Below are positions 2,833-47,935 of a stretch of 64,000 nucleotides of DNA, in pieces (position 1 is the stretch's first letter; each line of letters starts with the position of its first letter). The notes beneath the pieces were generated by a model, which made no database searches, was not told where the DNA came from, and saw only the letters and a program-made list of their open reading frames with translations. The DNA comes from an uncultured Gammaproteobacteria bacterium. GTDB lineage: Bacteria > Pseudomonadota > Gammaproteobacteria > Burkholderiales > Sulfuricellaceae. Both the position numbers and the translations under genes were made by a program. The stretch spans positions 110,542 to 174,541 of the forward strand of contig CAVUID010000018.1 of assembly GCA_963741495.1 (NCBI GenBank), read 5' to 3'.

Positions 2833-3519
2833 ATGCCTCAATATCGTATTGCGCCCAGCATCCTCTCGGCCAACTTTGCCAATCTCGGCCAGGACGTGGA
2901 CAACGTGCTCGCCTCCGGCGCGGACATCGTTCACTTCGATGTGATGGACAACCATTATGTGCCCAACCTGACCATCGGACCGCTGGTGTGCGAAGCCCTG
3001 CGCAAGCACGGTGTGACCGCGCCAATCGACGTGCATCTGATGGTCAAGCCAGTGGACCGTATCATCCCCGACTTCGCCAAGGCGGGCGCCACTTATATCA
3101 CTTTTCACCCAGAAGCTTCCGAGCATGTCGACCGCACCATCGGCTTGATCAAGGAAAGTGGCTGCAAGGCCGGCCTGGTATTCAACCCGGCCACGCCGCT
3201 GGACGTGCTGGAATACACCCTGGACAAACTCGACATGGTGCTGCTGATGTCGGTCAACCCCGGTTTCGGCGGTCAGAAATTCATTCCCTACGTGCTCGAC
3301 AAAGCCCGCAAGGTTCGCCAGATGATCGATGCGCGCGGCCTGGATATCAGCCTGGAAATTGACGGCGGCGTTGGCCCCGGCAACATTCTGGAAGTCGCCC
3401 GCGCTGGTGTGGATACTTTTGTCGCCGGTTCTGCCGTATTCGGTGCCGCAAAAGACAGCGACCCGCATCGCTTTGACTCCATCATCGCCGCGATGCGTGC
3501 CGAACTGGCCAAGGTTTAA
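2833..3519 (+). CDS. rpe: ribulose-phosphate 3-epimerase
   Basis: 228 aa: [14 protein letters not shown]...[12 protein letters not shown]...[13 protein letters not shown]...DGGV. Conserved rpe-gph-trpE order. Confidence 0.95.
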
Positions 3520-6797: not shown

Positions 6798-7696
6798 GCC
6801 GCCACTGGCGCACCCTGATGGGCACCTTGCGGCGGCTGGCCGGCACGCCGCTTGCCACGCTGGTGACGGTCAGCGTCATCGGCATCGCCCTCAGCCTGCC
6901 GGCCGGGCTCTACCTGCTGCTCTCCAATCTCAGCCAGGCTGGCGATACGATGGAAACCCAGCCGCAGATCAGCCTGTTTCTCAAACTTGATGCCGGTAAA
7001 GATACGCAGCGCCAGATTGAACAACAACTCAAGGGCCACGCCGCAATCAAGACATTCCGCTTTGTCGGCCGCGATCAGGCGCTCAAGGCACTTTCTGAAA
7101 GTAATGGCCTGGGCGACCTCACCGCCGGCCTGCCGAACAACCCCCTGCCTGACGCCTACGTCCTCACTGCCAAGGAAAGCGATGTAGCCCAGCTGGACAA
7201 GCTGCGTAGTGAGGTTTCGAAATGGCCAGGCGTGGAAACCGCGGAACTCGATTCAGCCTGGGTCAAACGCCTGAACGCCATGCTGGATCTGGGCCAGCAG
7301 CTTACCTTCATGCTGGCCATTCTGCTGGCTTTCGGCCTGATTGCCGGCATGGGCAACATCATCCGCTTGCAGATTCTCACACGGCAGGAAGAAATCGAGG
7401 TCAGCAAGCTGATCGGCGCCACCGACCGTTTCATCCGTCTGCCTTTTCTCTACCACGGCGCACTTCAGGGCCTGCTGGGCGGCCTGGCTGCCTGGGTCAT
7501 CATCGCCATCAGCACCCAGCTGCTGAATGTCAGCGTAATCAGGCTTAGCAGCCTCTATGGATCAGCTTTCAGGCTGGAAGGGCTGGCCACGGGGGATGCC
7601 GTCGCGCTACTGGGATTTTCCGCCATCCTGGGCTGGGTTGGCGCCTATGTTGCTGTCAGCCATTTTCTGCGCCACTTTCACCTTTCCCACCACTAG
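6794..7696 (+). CDS. ftsX: cell-division permease-like protein FtsX
   Basis: ATGA overlap with ftsE. N-terminal TM segment, periplasmic domain and three C-terminal TM segments (FtsX topology). Confidence 0.85.
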   Translation: MSRHWRTLMGTLRRLAGTPLATLVTVSVIGIALSLPAGLYLLLSNLSQAGDTMETQPQISLFLKLDAGKDTQRQIEQQLKGHAAIKTFRFVGRDQALKALSESNGLGDLTAGLPNNPLPDAYVLTAKESDVAQLDKLRSEVSKWPGVETAELDSAWVKRLNAMLDLGQQLTFMLAILLAFGLIAGMGNIIRLQILTRQEEIEVSKLIGATDRFIRLPFLYHGALQGLLGGLAAWVIIAISTQLLNVSVIRLSSLYGSAFRLEGLATGDAVALLGFSAILGWVGAYVAVSHFLRHFHLSHH

Positions 7697-9946: not shown

Positions 9947-10179
9947 TCGGGTGAGGCGTCGAGCGCCGCGCTGATTTCTGCAAACAGGGCCAGGGTTTTG
10001 GCGGCTTCTTCCGGGTCGAGCCGGTTGAGGGCGTAGCCCACATGAACGATCACATAATCGCCCACAGCCACGCCGTCCACCAGCGCCAGGGAAATGGTCT
10101 TGCGCACGCCGCCCACATCCACGACAGCCATGTCGTGTTCAAGAACTTCCGCCACCAGGGCGGGGATTGCCAGACACAT
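9943..10179 (-). CDS. hypC: hydrogenase assembly chaperone HypC/HupF
   Basis: Canonical MCLAIPA N-terminus at ATG 10179. 78 aa. ATGA overlap with the hypD start. Confidence 0.9.
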   Translation of the reverse strand: MCLAIPALVAEVLEHDMAVVDVGGVRKTISLALVDGVAVGDYVIVHVGYALNRLDPEEAAKTLALFAEISAALDASPE

Positions 10180-12536
10180 TATTCCAGTCCTCTGTTGATT
10201 GCCACCCACGCCTGCCCGAGGCTCAGGCCGCCATCGTTGGGCGGTACCTGTCGGGCTTCGAGAACGCGTAATCCTGCTTCTGTCAGCGCATCGCGCAAAT
10301 TCCGGCTGAGGATGGCATTGAGAAAACAGCCGCCACCCAATGCCACGATTTTAATGCCGCTTTGCTGCGCAGCCTGCATCACCCATTTCGTCAGCCCGTG
10401 CGCCAAGGTAGCATGAAACAGCGCCGCGCCGTAGGCAGGGTCGCGAGTGTCAGCCAGTGCGCCGAGCAGGGGAAGAAAATTTAGTGTGCCATCTGTGTTC
10501 AAGGTATAGCCATCGGGCAGCGGCGCAACTGTGCCATGCGTTTCCGCCAGCCCTTCCAGCAGCATGGCCGCCTGGCCTTCGAAGCTGGCCATATTCCTGA
10601 TCCCCAGCAAACCCGCGGCGGCATCGAACAGGCGTCCACAGCTCGACGTGAGTGGCGTATTGACGCCCTTGTCCAGCATCTGGCGTAGCATATCGGCGGC
10701 GGGCAAGGCGAAGCGCTGGCTGATTTCATCGCCCCGGCCCAAGTGCGTGGAGCGCGCTGGCCGCCATGCGCCACGGCTCGCGTGCGGCGCGGTCGCCGCC
10801 CGGCAGTGGCAGGTTTGCCAGATGGCCGAGGCGTTCGCAGCGTCCATTTTCGAGGCGAAGCAGTTCGCCGCCCCAGGCCGAGCCATCGGTGCCCAGACCA
10901 ACGCCATCCAGCGCCAGCCCCAGCGCGGGTTCGTCGCTGCCATGCTCGGCCAGAACGGCGGCGATGTGGGCATGGTGATGCTGTACGGCGATAGCCGGTA
11001 TGCCGCGTTCAGCGGCGAATTCGGTTGCAAAGCGGCTGCTGTGAAAATCCGGATGCAGGTCATGGGCGACGATTTCGGGCCGGATTTCCAGCACGTTCAT
11101 CAGGTGCGCCACCGTTTCTTCCAGCGCCTCGCGGGTCGGAGCGTTGTCGAGATCGCCCAGGTGCTGGGAAATGAATGCTTCGTTGCCGCGCGTCAGGCAT
11201 ATTGTGCTCTTGAACCAGCCGCCGCAGGCCAGCACGGAAGGGCCGGAGCGGGGCAAAAGAATGGCGCGCGGGGTGTAGCCACGGGCGCGGCGGATGAAGT
11301 GGAACGGGGAGTGAAGTGTGAAGTGTGAAGTGTGAAGTGTGGCAGCAGTGGCGTTTCTTACCACCGAGTCGTCGCAGCGCACTACGATATCGCGGTCGTG
11401 CAACACAAAGGCGTCGGCAATGCTGCCCAGCCGCGCCAGCGCTTCGTCGTTGCCAATCACCAGCGGTTCACCGCAGGGGTTGGCGCTGGTCATGACCAGC
11501 AGCAGTTCCTGTGGCTGGTCCAGCCAGGTTGTGCCGGACGGCCTGTTCGCCGCCTCGTGGAATAGCAGGTAATGCAGCGGGGTGTAGGGCAGCATTGCAC
11601 CCAGCCAGGCGATGCCTGGCGCAATGCCGGGTAAAGCTTCATCGCAGCCCGGTTGCTTGCGCAGCAGCACGATGGGGCGCTCGCGTGCTTGCAGCAGGTC
11701 TGTTTCCGCTGCGCTCATGTTCACTATTTTCCCCAGCGACGCCGTATTGGCCGCCATCACTGCAAAGGGCTTTTCCTCGCGCTGCTTGCGCTCGCGCAGT
11801 GTGGCTAACGGCCCCGGCATTGCGCGCATCGCAGACAAGGTGAAAGCCGCCCAGCCCCTTGATGGCGAGGATTTTTCCTGCCTTGAGCATGGCTACGCGT
11901 TGTCGCGATGACATCCGGTGTTTCGATGACCTGCCCGACGGCATCGCGCAGGGAAAGCTGCGGGCCGCACACCGGACAGGCGTTGGGCTCTGCGTGGAAG
12001 CGGCGCGTTTCGGGGTTGCGGTATTCCTGGCTGCATGCCGGACACAGCGGAAAGCTGGCCATGCTGGTGTAAGGGCGGTCGTAGGGCAGGTGGCGGGTGA
12101 TGGTGTAGCGCGGGCCGCAGTCGGTGCAGTTGATGAATGGGTAGCGGTAGCGGCGGTCGGTTGAGTTGAACAGTTCGGTCAGGCAGGCGGGGCAGGTGGC
12201 GGTATCGGGTGCGATGGCGGTGCGGGCAGGGCCGCCTTGACTTTCCTGTATGGAAAAATCCTGAAAAAGGGAGAGCAATATGTTTTCTTTTGCTTCCACC
12301 GACGTAACACGGGCCAAGGGCGGAGCGTCCGATTTCAGGCGGCGGAGCAGGTCGCTGATGGCGTGTTTCTCACCCTGCGCCGTGATTTCCACCCCCTCGC
12401 CATCGTTGCGCACCCAGCCGGCAATGCCGAGTTCCTTTGCTACACGATAAACAAAGGGACGGAAACCAACGCCCTGAACCTGGCCGCGTACGCGAATACT
12501 TGCAGTGACTGGAACAGCGTGGTCGCTACTGTTCAC
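10179..12536 (-). pseudogene. hypF: carbamoyltransferase HypF split over four reading frames (three frameshifts)
   Basis: Frame of ORF 11805..12536: acylphosphatase domain plus 2x CXXC-X18-CXXC zinc fingers. Frame of ORF 11639..11944: VAMLKAGKILAIKGLGGFHLVCDARNAGAV. Frame of ORF 10726..11838: ATLRERKQREEKPFAVM...RARGYTP...AVQHHHAH. Frame of ORF 10179..11063: GRGDEISQRF...LGGGCFLN...VPPNDGGLSLGQ. Junctions lie near 11895-11915, ~11806 and 10731-10742. Confidence 0.8.
11311..11340. repeat. solo tandem heptamer tract (GTGAAGT)x4 inside hypF
   Basis: The plus strand reads gtgaagt gtgaagt gtgaagt gtgaagt gt. It is translated in frame on the minus strand as ...LHTSHFTLHSP... between DDSVVR and RRARGY. 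Confidence 0.9.
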
Positions 12537-22024: not shown

Positions 22025-22447
22025 TCAGTTCTTCAAACAATCGCTCATAAATTTTTTGCGCTCGTCACCCTTGAGCGCTTTGTCGCCGGCTTCCTTGTTG
22101 CATAGTTTCATCTTGTTCTGCTGGGGTGTCTTTGCGCTGGCTGCTTCCGGCTCCTTGCCACTCAGGCAGCCGCTCATGAATTTTTTGCGCTCATCGCCCT
22201 TGAGTGCCTTGTCGCCAGCATCCTTGTTGCACTGCGCCATGCGGTTCTGCTGCGGCGTCTTGTCGCTGGGGGCTTCAGATGCCTTGCCGCTCAGGCAGTC
22301 ACTCATGAAGGCTTTTCGCTCATCCCCCTTGAGATCCTGGGTTTTTGCAGTCGCGTTGCATTCTTTCATTCGTTCCTGCTGTGGACCGGCATAAGCCAGA
22401 GTGCTGGACAAGGCCAGTGCGATGGCGGCAATAATCAGTTTTTTCAT
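22025..22447 (-). CDS. psiF: PsiF-repeat (phosphate-starvation-inducible) protein
   Basis: Signal peptide plus three copies of Q(Q)xRMxxCNxxAxxxxLKGDERKxFMSxCL. Confidence 0.8.
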   Translation of the reverse strand: MKKLIIAAIALALSSTLAYAGPQQERMKECNATAKTQDLKGDERKAFMSDCLSGKASEAPSDKTPQQNRMAQCNKDAGDKALKGDERKKFMSGCLSGKEPEAASAKTPQQNKMKLCNKEAGDKALKGDERKKFMSDCLKN

Positions 22448-26119: not shown

Positions 26120-27250
26120 TTACGGGCCGAAAAACGCCTTGACCTTGTCCATCCACGATTTGGCGCGCGGATTGTGGCGGTCGCCGTCGGCCAGGTTGAG
26201 ATCTTCCAGTTCGCGCAGCAATTCCTTCTGCCGTTCGGTCAGGCTGACTGGCGTTTCCACGATGACATGGCACATCAGGTCGCCGTGGTGCTGGCTGCGC
26301 ACGCCCTTGATGCCCTTGCCGCGCAGGCGGAAGACCTTGCCGCTCTGGGTTTCGGCGGGGATCTTGATCTTGGCGTGGCCGTCCAGGGTGGGGATGTCGA
26401 TTTCTCCGCCCAGCGCGGCAACGGTGAAGCTGATCGGCATTTCGCAGTGCAGGTCGTCGTGGTCGCGCTGGAACACGCCATGCGCCTTGATCTGGATGAC
26501 GACGTAGAGGTCGCCTGGTGGGCCGCCGTTGACGCCGTCCTCGCCTTCGCCGGAGAGGCGGATGCGGTCGCCTTCGTCCACGCCGGATGGAATCTTGACC
26601 ACCAGCGTCTTGTGCTGCTTGACGCGCCCGGAGCCCTGGCAGGTGCCGCAGGGGCTTTGCACCATCTTGCCGCTGCCGTGGCAGCGCGGGCAGGTTTGCT
26701 GGATGGAGAAGAAGCCCTGCTGCATCCTGACCTGGCCGTGGCCGCCGCAGGTGGTGCAGGTGGTCGGCTGGGTGCCGGGCTTGGCGCCGGTGCCATTGCA
26801 GGTGTCGCACTTTTCCATGGTGGGGATGCGGATCTTGGTTTCCGCGCCGCGTGCGGCGTCTTCCAGCGAGATTTCCAGGTTGTAGCGCAGGTCGGCGCCG
26901 CGATAGACGTTGGAACGCCCGCCGCGCCCGCCGCCACCGCCGAAGATGTCGCCGAAGATGTCGCCAAAGGCATCGGCAAATCCGCCCATGCCTGCACCGC
27001 CAGCGCCACCCATGCCGGCCTGCGGGTCCACCCCGGCATGGCCGTACTGGTCGTAAGCGCCGCGCTTGCCGCTGTCCGAGAGTATCTCGTAGGCTTCCTT
27101 GGCTTCCTTGAAGTGTTCTTCCGCCTTGGGATTGTCCGGATTGCGGTCCGGATGGTATTTCATCGCCAGCTTGCGGTAGGCTTTCTTGATCTCATCATCC
27201 GAGGCGTCGCGGTTGACGCCGAGGATTTCGTAATAGTCGCGTTTGCTCAT
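26120..27250 (-). CDS. dnaJ: molecular chaperone DnaJ
   Basis: J-domain [10 protein letters not shown]...HPDRN, a G/F region and 4x CXXCXGXG zinc-finger repeats. Confidence 0.97.
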
Positions 27251-27253
27251 TTT

Positions 27254-27290
27254 GAGTGTGAAGTGTGAAGTGTGAAATGTGAAATGTGGG
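27254..27290. repeat. heptamer-array arm (GTGAARN type), dnaJ-proximal
   Basis: The plus strand reads gagt gtgaagt gtgaagt gtgaaat gtgaaat gtggg. On the transcribed strand this gives CTTCAC repeats ending 7 nt before the dnaJ ATG. Confidence 0.9.
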
Positions 27291-27293
27291 ACG

Positions 27294-27650
27294 TCATTCG
27301 CGTTCCTTTAGCGATTTCATGAGTGCGTGGGTCAGGGCTGAAACTTCATCAATCTTGAGTTGCAGAGTCGAAGTGTCCTGACAGTAGCCGATGTTTAGCG
27401 ACAGTTCCAATTGTGTGTCAAGCTCGGCAAGTGAACCGCTTGCAATCACCAAAAAACGCAGCAAATCTTTGGTGCTCTGCCTTGCTGCACCTTCTGCAAT
27501 ATTGGATGGAACTGAAACTGCAGCTCGACGCATTTGGGAGGAAAGCCCATAGATTTCCTCCCTGGGAAAAGTGGAGGTGAGACGGTAAACCATTTCGACC
27601 AGTTGCATGGCTGATTGCCAGGCACGCAGATCCTTGTGGTTCCGTCTCAC
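27294..27650 (-). CDS. four-helix-bundle protein (23S rRNA intervening-sequence protein family)
   Basis: 118 aa: [46 protein letters not shown]......[21 protein letters not shown]. The GTG start (27650) is itself the last unit of the upstream heptamer arm. Confidence 0.85.
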
Positions 27651-27674
27651 GCTTCACCTTTCACTTTTCACGCT

Positions 27675-27678
<4 letters not shown>
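27646..27678. repeat. heptamer-array arm, dnaK-proximal (inverted relative to 27254-27290)
   Basis: The plus strand reads ctcac gcttcac ctttcac ttttcac gctttac. The array overlaps the dnaK stop codon (27675-27677). Confidence 0.9.
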
Positions 27679-29585
<1,907 letters not shown>

Positions 29586-29640
29586 GATTATTCCTTAATT
29601 TAATCAAGCAAATTCAAAATTCGTTGTGGTGTGCTGCTGA

Positions 29641-29717
29641 GTCATTGCGAGCCACGCGAAGCAATCTCGCTTCTGTTTAAGTACAGATTGCTTCGTCGCT
29701 TCGCTCCTCGCAATGAC
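29641..29717. repeat. palindromic intergenic element (GTCATTGCGAG...GCGAAGCAATCT type), copy 2
   Basis: gtcattgcgagccacgcgaagcaatct - loop - agattgcttcgtcgcttcgctcctcgcaatgac, in the grpE-dnaK spacer. Confidence 0.85.
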
Positions 29718-29785
29718 CGTGTATCTGAAAAACCCTTGCAGCTAAAGTGGGGTTGAGTGTGCGGCTTTCAAGCGGCTCTGAAAAC

Positions 29786-30334
29786 TTACGCGTCGCGGGC
29801 TTTTGCGACCATGACCAGCGCCGGGCGCAGGATGCGGTCGTGCAACTGGTAGCCTTTCTGCAATACTGTGACTACCGTATTGGGTTCGGCGTCGCTGTCC
29901 ACCATGCTGATGGCCTGGTGCTTGTGTGGATCAAATTTTTCACCGGCCGGATTGAGCTCGGCGATGCTGGATTTTTCAAAGGCGGAGACCAGCTGCTTCA
30001 GGGTCAGTTCGACACCGCTCTTGAGACTCTCAATGGTGGCCGTTTCCACAGCTAACGCTGCTTCCAGGCTGTCCTTAACTGCCAATAATTCGCTGGAAAA
30101 GTTTTCCACCGCGTATTTGTGTGCATTGGCGACGTCGGTCTGGGCGCGTTTGCGGATGTTTTCGGCATCCGCCTTGGCGCGCAGCCAGGCATCGTGGTGC
30201 TCCTGCGCAGCCAGCTCGGCCTGCTTGAGCAGCTCTTCCGGGCTGGGCATGGTGTCGATCTTGCCATCTTCAGCCATGGGCACGGTTTGTGTGGTTTCTT
30301 CGTGTTGTTCCAGTGTGGGTTGCTCGTCTTGCAT
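29786..30334 (-). CDS. grpE: nucleotide exchange factor GrpE
   Basis: 182 aa from MQDEQPT (GGAGG lies 6 nt upstream of ATG 30334): ...[18 protein letters not shown]...[16 protein letters not shown]. Confidence 0.95.
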
Positions 30335-30361
30335 GAATCGCCTCCTAATCAACTGGAGGCA

Positions 30362-30390
30362 ACATGGGCGCTGTTTTGCCCATTTCAAGC
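30362..30390 (-). promoter_or_regulatory. sigma-32 heat-shock promoter candidate for grpE-dnaK-dnaJ
   Basis: The minus strand reads CTTGAAA-14 nt-CCCATGTT, about 30 nt upstream of the grpE ATG. The sigma-32 consensus is CTTGAAA-N13-14-CCCCATNT. Confidence 0.55.
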
Positions 30391-30455
30391 ACATGGTTTT
30401 GAAAAATTGTGTTTCAGAGGCGAGGGGGGCGGGAAAATCCGGTCAATGCTTGAAG

Positions 30456-31754: not shown

Positions 31755-31894
31755 GTGAAACAGTTTTGTGAAGCGTGAAGTCACTCGCTGCGCTTTGTTT
31801 GTGAAGCGTGAAATGTAAAACACTCCCCGGAGTCTGCTCTTACATTTCACACTTCACAGCAAGGGCGCAGCCCAAGCGGCTTCACATTTCACTC
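31755..31894. repeat. compound (nested) heptamer-array palindromic element
   Basis: gtgaagc gtgaagt cactcg...gtgaagc gtgaaat gtaaaac - loop - ttacatttcac acttcac ...gcggcttcac atttcac. It shares the GTGAAGY-CACTCG module with the 47021 copy. Confidence 0.85.
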
Positions 31895-31921: not shown

Positions 31922-33013
31922 TTAATCCTTTGCCCCCATGGCAAGCGCGCGGGCCTTGCTTTCCTGGACGGTGGCGGGGTCGGGCGTCTCCTGCAGCCAG
32001 CCTTGCAGGTGGTTTAGGGTGATGTCGCACAAGGCGCGGATCCAGTCGTCACGCTCGTTGAGGCAGGGGATGTAATGAAATTCCTGACCGCCGGCATTGA
32101 GGAAATCCGCCTTGCATTCCATGGCGATTTCTTCCAGGGTTTCAAGGCAGTCAGCGGCAAAGCCGGGGCAGATTACGTCCACCCTTTTGACCCCTTTTTT
32201 GCCCAGCATTTGCAGGGTGGGGGCCGTGTAGGGCTGGATCCATTCGGCGCGACCGAAGCGCGACTGAAATGTGACCAGGAATCGATCGGGGGTGAGGCCC
32301 AGCGCTTCAGCCAGCAGACGCCCGGTTTTATGGCATTCGCAGTGATAGGGGTCGCCCTTGTCCAGCGTGTATCGGGGCACGCCGTGAAAGCTCATGATCA
32401 GCTGGTCCGGGCGGCCATGCTGCTGCCAGTGGTCGCGCACGCTGTTGGCCAGTGCGTCTATATAACCGGGGTGGTCGTGATAATGTTTTACTGTCCGCAG
32501 TTCCGGCATGTTGCGGCTCTCCAGCAGCGTCTGGAACACCGCATCCAGCGCCGATGCCGTGCTGCTCGCAGCGTATTGCGGATAAAGTGGCAAGGCGAGA
32601 ATGCGTTCACAGCCCTGTTCCCGCAGCGACGCGATGGCCGAGGGCACGGACGGATTGCCATAACGCATGGCGAATTCGATCGCCAGTGGGGCCTTGGTTC
32701 GTTCCCCAAGGTAGCCTTGCAGCATCTTCGCCTGTTTGCGGGTGTGGGCGAACAGCGGGGAGCCTTCGCGGGTCCAGATCTGGGCGTACTTCTGCGCCGA
32801 TTTGCCGGGGCGGGTGTTGAGAATGATGCCGTTAAGAATCAGCCACCACAGCAGACGTGGAATTTCGACCACGCGCGGGTCGCTCAGAAACTGCTTGAGA
32901 TAGGGGCGCAGCGCCTGCCGGGTGGGTGCGTCCGGGGTGCCGAGATTGATCAGCAGGATGCCGGTTTTGTCTGGAATGCCGTGGGCGTGGGGGGGCTCTG
33001 GAAGATAGGGCAT
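31922..33013 (-). CDS. hemH: ferrochelatase
   Basis: 363 aa: [11 protein letters not shown]...PLYPQY...SFHG(V)P...GDPY family pattern. Confidence 0.93.
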
Positions 33014-38659: not shown

Positions 38660-39790
38660 GTGCCGCAACACCAGCCAGCCATACTCGTGCTCGCAGATGG
38701 AACAGTGTTTCGCGGTATTTCCATTGGCGCGACAGGCCATTCCGTAGGCGAAGTAGTATTCAATACCGCCCTGACCGGCTACCAGGAAATTCTTAGCGAT
38801 CCCTCTTACTGCCGTCAGATTGTTACCCTGACTTACCCCCATATCGGCAACACCGGCGCCAATCCTGAAGATGCCGAGTCCGGCGGGATTCATGCTGCCG
38901 GACTGGTGATTCGTGACCTGCCTCTACTGTCCAGCAACTGGCGTGAAACGGAAACTCTGCCGCAATACCTTCAACGCAATAATGTCGTTGCGATTGCCGA
39001 TATCGATACCCGCAAGTTGACGCGAATTCTGCGCGACAAGGGCGCCCAGAGCGGTTGTCTGATGGCCGGAGAGGTGGATGAGGCCAAGGCGCTGGAGCTG
39101 GCGCGTGGCTTTGCCGGCCTGGCTGGCATGGATCTCGCCAAGGTGGTGACGCGCGCCCAGAGTGAGGTCTGGCTTGAAGGCGAGTGGAAGCTTGAAGGCG
39201 GATTTGGCCAGCAGGCTGCGCCTGAATTCCATGTCGTGGCCTACGATTTTGGCGTCAAGCGCAATATTTTGCGCATGCTCGCAGAACGCGGCTGCAAGGT
39301 GACCGTGCTGCCGGCGCAAACCCCGGTTGAAGAGGTGTTCAAGCTCAATCCGGATGGCGTGTTTTTGTCCAACGGCCCGGGTGATCCGGAGCCATGCGAT
39401 TACGCCATCAATGCGATCCAGAAAGTGCTGGAGAAGAAAATTCCCACTTTTGGCATCTGTCTCGGTCACCAGTTGCTGGCGCTGGCCTCTGGCGCAAAAA
39501 CCATGAAAATGAAATTCGGCCATCATGGCGCCAATCATCCGGTGCAGGATCTGGATAGCGGACGGGTGATGATTACCAGCCAGAACCACGGTTTTGCAGT
39601 GGACCCGGCCACACTGCCAGCCAATTTGCGCGTAACACATAAATCGCTGTTTGATGGCAGTAATCAGGGCATTGCCCGTACCGATGTGCCTGCATTCAGC
39701 TTCCAGGGCCACCCTGAAGCAAGCCCGGGACCACATGATGTGGCTTATCTGTTTGACCGCTTCATAAAATTAATGAGAGAAAGATCGTGA
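38660..39790 (+). CDS. carA: carbamoyl-phosphate synthase small (glutaminase) subunit
   Basis: GTG start after GGAGAG: [14 protein letters not shown]...GICLGHQLL...HGANHPV...QGHPEA. Confidence 0.93.
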
Positions 39791-39871
39791 AGGGTGAAAT
39801 GTGAAATGTGAATTTACGCCTGTCAAAATGGCGGCGATTTCACCCTTCACTCTTCACCCTTCACCCTTCAC
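39787..39871. repeat. heptamer-array palindromic element in the carA|carB spacer
   Basis: gtgaagg gtgaaat gtgaaat gtgaatt - 23 nt - tttcacc cttcact cttcacc cttcacc cttcac. It overlaps the carA stop and ends 6 nt before the carB ATG. Confidence 0.9.
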
Positions 39872-39877
39872 GCATTC

Positions 39878-47020: not shown

Positions 47021-47112
47021 GTGAAGGGTGAAGCCACTCGGCATTGCCTCGTTGTGAAAAGTGAAAGGTAAAAGACATCTTCACTCTTCACCCTTCACTC
47101 TTCACCCTTCAC
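47021..47112. repeat. heptamer-array palindromic element in the ftsH|folP spacer
   Basis: gtgaagg gtgaagc cactcg...gtgaaaa gtgaaag gtaaaag acatc ttcactc ttcaccc ttcactc ttcaccc ttcac. It ends 4 nt before the folP ATG. Confidence 0.9.
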
Positions 47113-47116
47113 GAAC

Positions 47117-47935
47117 ATGTTTCATTGCGGTCGCTTTACCCTCTCCCTGGATCGCCCTCTCGTCATGGGCATCGTCAATATCACGCCCGACTCCTTTTCG
47201 GACGGTGGTCGTTTTTATTCCCCGGAATTCGCTATCGAACATGCCAGGCAACTCATCGAACATGGGGCCGACCTGCTGGATATTGGTGGTGAATCGACCC
47301 GCCCTGGCGCGCAGCCGGTTGGTATAGAGGAAGAGCTGGAGCGCATCTTGCCTGTGCTCGATGCTTTAGGCGATTGCGGTGTGCCGCTTTCGGTGGATAC
47401 ATTAAAACCCGAAGTCATGCATGCGGCGATTCAGGCCGGTGCCGACATGATCAATGATGTAAATGCATTGCGCGCCGAGGGCGCCCTGAAGGTGGTGGCG
47501 GATTCCAGCGTCGCCGTTTGCCTGATGCACATGCAGGGCGAACCGCGCATGATGCAGCAGAGTCCCCGGTATCAGGATGTAGTCGCTGAAGTGAAAGCCT
47601 TTCTGAATGAACGCATCGCAGTGGCGGGGCGGGCCGGAATTCAGCGTAACCGCATAGTGATTGATCCCGGTTTCGGTTTTGGCAAGACGCTGGAGCATAA
47701 TCTATCCCTGCTTCGGCAGCTGGATGCTTTCACCGACCTTGGTGTGCCGCTGCTGGCCGGTCTGTCGCGCAAATCGATGCTGGGCGTATTGACCGGTTTG
47801 CCGGTAGAAGAAAGAATGGTGCCCAGTGTTGCCGCAGCCGTGATTGCGGCCATGAAGGGTGCAAAAATTTTGCGGGTGCATGATGTGAAAGAAACCAGAC
47901 AAGCACTGCAGATCGTCAGTGCATTGGGAGAGTGA
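47117..47935 (+). CDS. folP: dihydropteroate synthase
   Basis: [15 protein letters not shown]...[11 protein letters not shown]...NDV...GFGFGKT. Confidence 0.95.

Follow-up and report, generated by a model that had tools for sequence, protein, structure and literature searches.

A four-helix-bundle gene between inverted heptamer arrays in a dnaK-dnaJ spacer, and heptamer arms at the genes of its family

In the intervening sequence (IVS) of the Coxiella 23S rRNA, three GACAGAT heptamers are located just upstream of an S23p open reading frame (ORF); the element has a 28-bp stem, and its excision by RNase III has been shown (Warrier et al., PMC4990558). Heptamer simple-sequence repeats are over-represented in some genomes, and Rehm et al. 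described about 186 GGGAATC arrays, with about 70 convergent pairs, per Xanthomonas genome as well as related GGGGAYT arrays in Nostoc (PMC4692102). The heptamer arrays were read as G-quadruplex formers and a four-helix-bundle (4HB) gene was not mentioned (PMC4692102). Here we describe a locus in which both features meet. In a 64,000-nt stretch of DNA from an uncultured gammaproteobacterium of the Sulfuricellaceae (contig CAVUID010000018.1 of GCA_963741495.1; the whole stretch is referred to as the window), a gene of the S23p/4HB family is situated between dnaK and dnaJ. Two inverted arrays, each with about five GTGAARN heptamers, make up an imperfect stem of roughly 36 bp, and the gene occupies its loop (Table 1). 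Apart from the description of the Coxiella IVS, no paper linking 4HB genes with heptamer arrays was found, subscription-only literature lying outside the search.

The arms and the 4HB gene take up the entire dnaK-dnaJ spacer. A sequence-only reading of the window had proposed that a 4HB-family gene is nested between inverted heptamer arrays in the orientation of dnaK and dnaJ, and both the coordinates and the profile scores given below agree with this proposal. Likewise, its statements that the 5' arm overlaps the dnaK stop codon and that the last unit supplies the GTG start of the cargo gene can be read directly in the sequence: the stop codon TAA (27677–27675) lies within unit 1, and the GTG (27650–27648) opens unit 5. 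Since an in-frame TGA is located 6 nt (two codons) upstream, the GTG at 27650 is the earliest possible start codon of the 4HB gene, and homology to the Pfam model extends from residue 6 onward. A Shine-Dalgarno-like GGTGA (27658–27654) is provided by unit 4 of the same arm. The 4HB stop codon TGA (27296–27294) is followed immediately by the 3' arm, then by CAAA and the dnaJ ATG at 27250. The 3-nt gap initially given between cargo stop and 3' arm shrinks to 0 nt once the innermost CGTC/GACG pairs are counted, while the close distance to dnaJ stands, the arm ending 4–7 nt before the ATG. A repeat search delimited inverted arms of 36 nt each (27258–27293 and 27643–27678) with 78% complementarity and 349 nt between them; 8 of the 36 positions are mismatched. 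Both arms are paired with each other in the minimum-free-energy fold of either strand. The 4HB gene is the only one of its kind in the window and the sole ORF between the arms; with this 118-residue protein as the only product, no transposase or recombinase is encoded there. Throughout the window, 31 GTGAARN doublets are found compared to 0.86 expected, a count that was reached in none of 100 shuffles.

No sigma-70-type promoter was detected for the cassette, and no minus-strand site resembling an intrinsic terminator (GC-rich stem followed by a T run) is present in 26900–30400. A Shine-Dalgarno sequence (AAGGA) lies ahead of dnaK, unlike dnaJ, carB and folP, each of which directly follows a C-rich arm. 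A scan of the whole window with Rfam at the gathering threshold reached no family, rRNA included. At the arm ends (...GAGAAGAA/GTAAAGC ... CACACT/CAAAATG, with slashes marking the ends) no target-site duplication was seen by eye, which is a weak test given the ill-defined ends of the arrays.

The protein encoded by the cassette matches PF05635 with an E-value of 1.5e-36 (125.2 bits, cut-off 33.8) and TIGR02436 with 120.7 bits (cut-off 24). By sequence it also matches XCC0516 (PDB-ID: 2GSC) at E = 1.5e-35. The AlphaFold model, calculated from 35 homologues with a predicted local distance difference test (pLDDT) score of 95.4, comprises four helices at residues 9–25, 36–56, 60–86 and 94–117. According to Foldseek, the model superimposes with template modelling scores of 0.91 on 2GSC, 0.82 on 2RLD, a Bacteroides member of the 'S23 ribosomal protein family', and 0.71–0.78 on Avd (4DWL and 8UB7), so that the window protein can be predicted with confidence to be a four-helix bundle. 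The crystals of 2GSC, 2RLD and Avd (4DWL) each contain five chains, and Avd is additionally found within an RNA-protein complex. Members of the 4HB family are basic, with a median isoelectric point (pI) of 9.2. More than 7,900 homologues at E ≤ 1e-10 were among the matches listed, and the named members of the cluster to which the window protein belongs are from Sulfuricella denitrificans and Sulfurimicrobium sp. Compared with its orthologue at locus L082 (see below), the gene displays a ratio of nonsynonymous to synonymous divergence (dN/dS) of 0.026 at a dS of 0.88. It is under strong purifying selection, and the protein is therefore functional.

The possibility that the protein is the Avd of a diversity-generating retroelement (DGR) was considered and discarded. 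Its similarity to the Avd models is weak and the scores are far below their cut-offs (NF033474, 19.1 bits against 80; PF22296, 20.9 bits against 40), and neither a reverse transcriptase nor template/variable repeats are found nearby. Instead, grpE, dnaK and dnaJ are the neighbours in the window and in six orthologous loci. PADLOC gave no match for the 4HB protein, nor did tblastn against cultured phage genomes.

The sequence-only reading had suggested examining whether inverted heptamer arrays also flank further 4HB genes, and this is found to be so for 65–78% of the genes compared with about 1% of controls. Two independent sets of 80 loci were analysed, one drawn from one genome per species and the other from metagenomes, in which 76 and 66 genes (142) were scored. 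The sets cover Pseudomonadota, Bacteroidota, Acidobacteriota, Planctomycetota, Chloroflexota and others; most sequences are metagenome-assembled genomes (MAGs) or metagenome contigs, and neighbouring genes were called by a longest-ORF heuristic. Inverted repeats were scored between 120-nt flanks with a threshold of ≥12, random intervals of the same size in the same loci serving as control. In the genome set, 78% of the 76 genes had inverted flanks, and in the metagenome set 65% of the 66, versus 0.3% and 1.1% of the random placements. Within 160 nt of a 4HB gene, 212 of the 315 arrays reported by Tandem Repeats Finder have a period of 7, corresponding to a density of 4.35 per kb beside the gene versus 0.21 per kb elsewhere (about 20-fold). 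The median copy number of the arrays is 4.3 (interquartile range 3.9–4.75), and in a few Bacteroidales loci the period is 8 instead of 7. The upstream arm is always G-rich (39% G, 9% C), the 3' arm being its mirror image.

Approached from the opposite side, 123 of the 155 inverted period-7 pairs that are at least 100 nt apart enclose a 4HB homologue, and most of the others are cross-pairings of neighbouring elements. Two further inverted pairs enclose divergent PF05635 paralogues and are built from heptamers unlike the ones belonging to the second 4HB gene of that locus. Together with the Coxiella IVS, these two paralogues suggest that the heptamer-arm rule reaches beyond the subfamily marked by the peptide VPSNIAEG, through which the loci were mostly collected. 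Arms are present at most of 15 4HB homologues on IMG/VR viral contigs and at all three homologues examined on cyanobacterial plasmids. In the Nostoc plasmid, GGGAGTA arms enclose a 4HB gene in antisense orientation between the genes for two ribonucleotide reductase subunits (beta and alpha), and the Calothrix plasmid gene has GGGTGTA arms. In plasmid pANA02 of Anabaena sp. 90 (L186, 1–300), the 4HB gene is located between cas6 and cas4, with a 5' arm of about 40 units (about 300 nt) in which GGTGACA and GGGAACA alternate, and with few units in the examined portion of the 3' arm. The insertion contexts of 4HB genes comprise dnaK-dnaJ, accB-accC, ahcY-metF, the ribonucleotide reductase beta/alpha spacer and cas6-cas4; a 23S rRNA context was not encountered among loci L001–L162. 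Both neighbours are on the strand of the 4HB gene in 57% of the genes, a value that has no computed control and does not look unusual for bacterial gene order. As read from these loci, the architecture shown across the family is a G-rich heptamer array, the 4HB gene and a complementary C-rich array, which is found in numerous phyla and likewise on viral contigs and plasmids of cyanobacteria. The notion of cargo nested in a heptamer-array element is hence supported and more general than the window alone.

When the repeat units are aligned by rotation, a core of G (93%)-T/G-G/A-A (G-K-R-A) emerges, followed by three variable positions. The information content amounts to 3.88 bits per unit versus 2.62 ± 0.2 bits for shuffled units, and GTGA occurs in 42 of 115 units compared to 11.4 ± 3.3 expected. 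The heptamer itself varies among lineages and among paralogues within one genome. Within a cassette the two arms agree: among 12 orthologous Xanthomonadales accB-4HB-accC cassettes, the types GGGAATC, GGGATTC and GTGATTG occur, always matching in both arms, and the matrix of own-arm versus foreign-arm scores is block-diagonal. Variants specific to single units are mirrored in antiparallel order between the arms (mean z 0.94, Wilcoxon p = 2.7e-6). Moreover, heptamer and protein vary together, protein identity being 65% for identical heptamers versus a background of about 47%, and none of 999 Mantel permutations reached the observed value. Orphan period-7 arrays match the local 4HB arms with at most one mismatch in 43% of cases, versus 5.7% across loci. 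The arms are also closely fitted to the neighbouring reading frames, as the upstream stop codon lies inside the array or within 3 nt of it at 57 of 90 loci and the accC ATG directly follows the last ATTCCC of the arm at all Xanthomonadales loci. XCC0516, the protein of structure 2GSC, which crystallized as a ring of five four-helix bundles, matches the protein of the X. arboricola accB-4HB-accC cassette over its full length (E = 5e-66) and can therefore be identified as the protein of a cassette with GGGAATC arms.

Three general explanations of the arms were tried and rejected. Mimicry of Shine-Dalgarno or anti-Shine-Dalgarno sequences is not compatible with GGGAATC, TAGATAT, AGTAGTT and many other heptamers. 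The G-rich arm holds more stop triplets than expected (83 of 115 versus 56), but stops in all three frames fail as the cause of the 7-nt period, as units of the GGGAATC type contain no stop triplet. Formation of G-quadruplexes, proposed for the published arrays (PMC4692102), does not hold in general, GTGAARN and many other units being devoid of G-runs. Two individual loci may be mentioned here. In Xanthomonas vasicola (L038, about 3290–3300), a 7-nt duplication (CAGCCAG) frameshifts the 4HB gene between accB and accC while both arms are intact, which represents dead cargo between living arms. At L014 (about 3355–3400), a probable GDP-fucose synthetase gene appears, by eye, to start at an ATG overlapping the 4HB stop codon (TCATGA); this downstream gene would be translated through the whole C-rich 3' arm.

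The dnaK-4HB-dnaJ arrangement recurs in relatives. Locus L082 (GCA_964384915.1) carries the same cassette with a 5' arm identical to that of the window in 36 of 36 nt and about seven changes in the 3' arm; synonymous divergence reaches 0.29 for dnaK and 0.88 for the 4HB gene. The 60-nt flanks, comprising the arms together with portions of the adjacent genes, are better conserved (0.74 and 0.66) than the third codon positions of the 4HB gene (0.54). Further copies with GTGAAAN/NTTTCAC arms were found in a Burkholderiales MAG (L003, 62% protein identity), a metagenome contig (L083, 74% protein identity), Chitinimonas (L178), L180 and a Methylophilaceae bacterium (L183). In an RNAalifold consensus of seven orthologues, the arms pair as three helices of 6–10 bp, GUGAAA with UUUCAC; most pairs are invariant, and the set hence holds little covariation information. 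To judge from this distribution, the cassette has long belonged to the dnaKJ operon of betaproteobacteria and has been inherited vertically. A one-off recent insertion is contradicted by its presence in Sulfuricellaceae, Methylophilaceae, Chitinimonas and the Burkholderiales MAG, and the arrangement is conserved over this wide clade together with its arrays, not without them.

Turnover at the same site is illustrated by locus L001 (GCA_018813345.1). Its DnaK protein is identical to that of the window and its dnaK is nearer (dS 0.15) than that of L082 (0.29), yet a 4HB gene is missing. The 72-nt dnaK-dnaJ spacer (6911–6983) instead consists of GGGAAAT GGGTAAT GAGTGAT GGGTGAT GGGGG, a tttt loop, three CCCCATT and one CCCCATC, each arm being more uniform internally than complementary to the other. 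The site is therefore occupied by another hairpin and does not represent an empty site. Because this hairpin uses a different heptamer (GGGTGAT/ATTCCCC), comparison of the spacers points to loss and replacement of the element in the L001 lineage and not to a simple internal deletion. In a Sulfurimicrobium MAG (L002, about 3250–3389), an orthologous 4HB gene with 92% identity is broken after codon 84 by CACAGAG-type repeats with an inverted partner, and the contig ends at the repeat-rich sequence that interrupts the gene.

Cargo-less hairpins of the same heptamer type occur elsewhere in the genome of the window (Table 1). The short-loop hairpins at carA-carB and ftsH-folP that were noted in the sequence-only reading are real, with the short loops and strong RNA folds listed. 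At carA-carB, the carA stop codon TGA is part of unit 1 and the carB ATG (39878) is located 4 nt past the arm. At ftsH-folP, the 5' arm consists of two outer units, a 20-nt non-heptamer insert and three inner units, the 3' arm has five units, and the folP ATG follows at 47117. Such short elements may be cargo-less derivatives of a gene-carrying unit, as had been suggested; no 4HB remnant is contained in their loops, however, and the hairpin of L001 has another heptamer. In both compound hairpins, a 20-nt non-heptamer segment, TCACTCGCTGCGCTTTGTTT (31781–31800) and CCACTCGGCATTGCCTCGTT (47034–47053), separates two outer from three inner heptamers of the 5' arm. A partly complementary segment is present in the 3' arm of the compound hairpin at 31.8 kb and absent at 47 kb. 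Such a segment might represent a small insertion that entered the arm secondarily.

Table 1. Heptamer-array elements of the window and the genes of the dnaK-4HB-dnaJ cassette (window positions).
Feature	Position	Strand	Description
dnaK	27675–29585	minus	upstream cistron, PF00012; stop codon provided by heptamer unit 1
4HB gene	27294–27650	minus	118 codons, GTG start, PF05635/TIGR02436
dnaJ	26120–27250	minus	downstream cistron; CACACTCAAA precedes the ATG, no Shine-Dalgarno sequence
5' arm	27643–27678	minus	GTAAAGC GTGAAAA GTGAAAG GTGAAGC GTGAGAC + G (five heptamers)
3' arm	27255–27293	minus	CGTCCCAC ATTTCAC ATTTCAC ACTTCAC ACTTCAC ACT
carA-carB cargo-less hairpin	39787–39873	plus	GTGAARN family; loop about 24 nt; RNA fold −43 kcal/mol, z = −7.2
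ftsH-folP cargo-less compound hairpin	47021–47112	plus	inner loop about 5 nt; RNA fold z = −4.1
Cargo-less compound hairpin downstream of hemH	31768–31892	minus	about 30 nt past the hemH stop codon (31922–31924); −66.6 kcal/mol, z = −8.1
Solo array GTGAAGT x4.4	11311–11341		inside the hypF reading frame, no inverted partner

The solo array in hypF is located in the linker between the Sua5/YrdC and Kae1-like domains, where its stop-free C-rich strand is read through. The hypF gene is split over three minus-strand frames (11805–12536, 10726–11838 and 10179–11063), indicating either a pseudogene or frameshift errors of the MAG. A tandem repeat at 22042–22333 (129-nt unit, 2.3 copies, 79% matches, Tandem Repeats Finder) is unrelated to the heptamer system.

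As the best explanation we propose a conserved cassette whose stem closes off the insert, combined with a pentameric protein that binds its own heptamer arrays; to this explanation as a whole, including the mechanism set out here, we would give an even chance. Pairing of the arms in the polycistronic transcript, and perhaps also in single-stranded DNA, would close off the insert as a stem-loop. The upstream stop codon, placed at the stem's 5' base, would thereby come to lie beside the downstream start codon, which is placed at the 3' base and lacks a Shine-Dalgarno sequence. A closed stem would make the cassette tolerable in operons, similar to an IVS that extends a helix of the 23S rRNA. Translation of dnaJ would then rely on ribosomes that, having completed dnaK, unwind the stem at its base or reinitiate across it, and translational coupling is likely. 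The putatively pentameric 4HB protein might bind the heptamer array of its own type with about one unit per protomer and thereby set the balance between open and hairpin forms. Since the Shine-Dalgarno sequence and start codon of the 4HB gene lie in the 5' arm, binding might also control the protein's own translation. In trans, the protein could act on cargo-less hairpins of the same type, such as those at carA-carB, at ftsH-folP and downstream of hemH. RNase III may in addition cut the stem, as it does in rRNA.

Several observations weigh against this explanation. The sense stem in the window is only 78% complementary, and in the RNAalifold consensus the helices are divided by a column at unit position 7 that is usually unpaired in this clade. 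Among arm mismatches on the sense strand, A:C (77) and G:U (51) show no excess of G:U, a pattern that provides no positive evidence of a sense-RNA duplex being under selection. One shared DNA-binding specificity, or gene conversion between the arms, would likewise produce their co-variation. At the five loci L109, L167, L172, L174 and L177, the Bacteroidota-type −7 promoter motif TAnnTTTG lies 10–25 nt upstream of the 4HB start codon, between 5' arm and start and thus in the loop; at such Bacteroidota-like loci, an mRNA initiated from it would hold the 3' arm only, which speaks for an action on DNA or in trans. Overall, the motif occurs within 75 nt upstream of 9 of 171 4HB genes versus 1.5% of control windows. 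As for the protein, a homopentamer is suggested for the window sequence solely by the five-chain crystal structures of its homologues, and its own pI of 7.9 is only mildly basic. Finally, as both locus sets were obtained mostly via the peptide VPSNIAEG, they sample one PF05635 subfamily.

Four other explanations have to be weighed against the proposed cassette. As the sequence-only reading had suggested, the stem may be an RNase III site of the IVS type, here taken as its main function; cleavage would split the messages of dnaK, 4HB and dnaJ from one another and determine their relative stability, the protein being incidental or acting after excision. The topology is that of 23S IVSs, for which excision has been shown experimentally and in which the Coxiella heptamers are part of a 28-bp stem (PMC4990558); stems of about 30–36 bp are sufficiently long for RNase III, and the hairpins fold strongly. 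However, this reading leaves the 7-nt periodicity, the conserved G-K-R-A core, the heptamer differences between paralogues and the strong purifying selection acting on the protein without an explanation; further points against it are the 8 mismatches in the 36-nt stem and the finding that, on the sense strand, G:U mismatches do not exceed A:C mismatches. As the main function, processing by RNase III is therefore possible and in our view somewhat improbable, although it is compatible with the proposed cassette and not exclusive of it. Of comparable, limited probability is a selfish mobile cassette, in which the arrays would be terminal inverted repeats composed of several binding sites that the 4HB protein recognizes, catalysis would be left to the host or another enzyme, and the cargo-less hairpins would be non-autonomous copies. 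Mobility would fit the many insertion contexts, 23S rRNA among them (PMC4990558), the occurrence on plasmids and viral contigs, the several paralogues per genome with arms of their own, the orphan arrays with the local heptamer, the internal promoter motif at some loci and the turnover at the dnaK-dnaJ site, where L001 lacks the gene though it is nearer to the window (dS 0.15) than L082 (0.29). On the other hand, orthologous cassettes have stayed in place across class- or order-level divergence under purifying selection, cargo-less loops contain no 4HB remnant, and the searches with PADLOC and against cultured phages gave no matches. In addition, no target-site duplication was seen and no catalytic domain is recognizable, and both of these weaken a classical transposon model.

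Heptads are also known as operators in double-stranded DNA: on inc18 plasmids, the omega repressor recognizes runs of adjoining WATCACW heptads. A 4HB protein that binds duplex heptads as transcriptional regulator or roadblock would account for the same heptad in both arms and for the paralogue-specific heptamers, and the binding of contiguous 7-bp heptads, direct and inverted, by a small protein has precedent (PMC9499535). The antiparallel mirroring of unit variants is nevertheless better suited to pairing than to shared specificity alone, roadblocks in rRNA and housekeeping operons would be costly, and arms tightly adjoining stop and start codons point to the level of RNA or translation, so that we regard operator arrays as unlikely. 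Simple-sequence repeats that arose by slippage beside an unrelated small gene are conceivable in view of the over-representation of heptamer repeats in some genomes (PMC4692102). Such a coincidence is refuted by the roughly 20-fold local enrichment of period 7, by inverted flanks at 65–78% versus about 1% in two locus sets, by the co-variation of the arms and by a cargo that is almost exclusively a 4HB gene, and its probability is negligible.

The proposed cassette bears on three puzzles that have long been separate: the role of the ORF in 23S IVSs, the over-representation of intergenic heptamers, and the function of the very large 4HB family, from which at least two structures, 2GSC and 2RLD, have been solved. 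All three are joined in one genetic unit with cognate arms, a G-K-R-A core, about five units per pentamer and arms placed at stop and start codons. More broadly, S23p/4HB proteins could be sequence-specific readers of arrays with one unit per protomer, and the cassettes a widespread, unrecognized class of self-contained hairpin elements, of which 23S IVSs, the Xanthomonas GGGAATC arrays and the cyanobacterial arrays would be manifestations or orphans, with Avd as a branch recruited by a retroelement; this generalization is tentative and we consider it rather doubtful. A ready experimental system is available in XCC0516, which is already crystallized and stems from a GGGAATC-armed accB-accC cassette. 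If the arms provide translational coupling or a hairpin switch controlled by the protein, a new layer of control would be added to the dnaKJ, accBC and carAB operons, with a bearing on the origin of the DGR protein Avd.

Among known systems, repetitive extragenic palindromes with their mosaic elements (REP/BIME) and transposable elements of the miniature inverted-repeat type (MITEs) resemble the 4HB elements as short palindromes across operon spacers that are able to modulate mRNA stability and downstream expression, and in having orphans that outnumber the protein-coding copy. In contrast to these, the 4HB arms are tandem heptamer arrays instead of a unique palindrome, and no RAYT or transposase and no visible target-site duplication accompany them. 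A functional analogy, and no more than that, exists to TRAP and HutP, ring-shaped RNA-binding oligomers that read periodic motifs, HutP recognizing UAG-N4 repeats with a period of 7 nt. Common to both sides are a ring oligomer, about 4–5 units facing five protomers, and a conserved core combined with variable spacer positions; the folds are unrelated, however, the 4HB arrays come as inverted pairs, and binding by the 4HB protein is a proposal. Avd shares the fold and is pentameric, basic and part of an RNA-protein complex, but the neighbours typical of a DGR, reverse transcriptase and template/variable repeats, are not present at the window locus.

The arrays of Xanthomonas, Nostoc and Calothrix (known as STRR in the last two cases) are likewise tandem heptamers, mostly of at least four units, which are intergenic, near the upstream ORF and often arranged as convergent pairs in which the G-rich strand comes first. 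The arms of the Xanthomonadales accB-4HB-accC cassettes are exactly the published GGGAATC repeats, whereas the 4HB arms on cyanobacterial plasmids are built from units (GGGAGTA, GGGTGTA, GGTGACA) other than the published GGGGAYT, and the GTGAARN heptamer of the window is not prone to form G-quadruplexes. Another close counterpart is the 23S rRNA IVS with an S23p ORF, known from Leptospira, Coxiella and others, in which the same protein family is encoded in the loop of a long stem of terminal inverted repeats and closed off from the host RNA. This ORF-in-loop topology, already pointed out from the sequence alone, is borne out in the window by 36-nt arms that pair in the predicted folds and by membership in the same protein family. 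The two differ in their host RNA: an IVS is inserted in 23S rRNA at helix 25 or 45, the cassette in the mRNA spacer of dnaK-dnaJ. In addition, the arms in the window adjoin stop and start codons, and strong purifying selection acts on the 4HB gene, in contrast to the decaying ORF of Coxiella. In conclusion, the cassette is an IVS-type ORF-in-hairpin element that lives in operon spacers, with heptamer arrays as its previously unrecognized hallmark.

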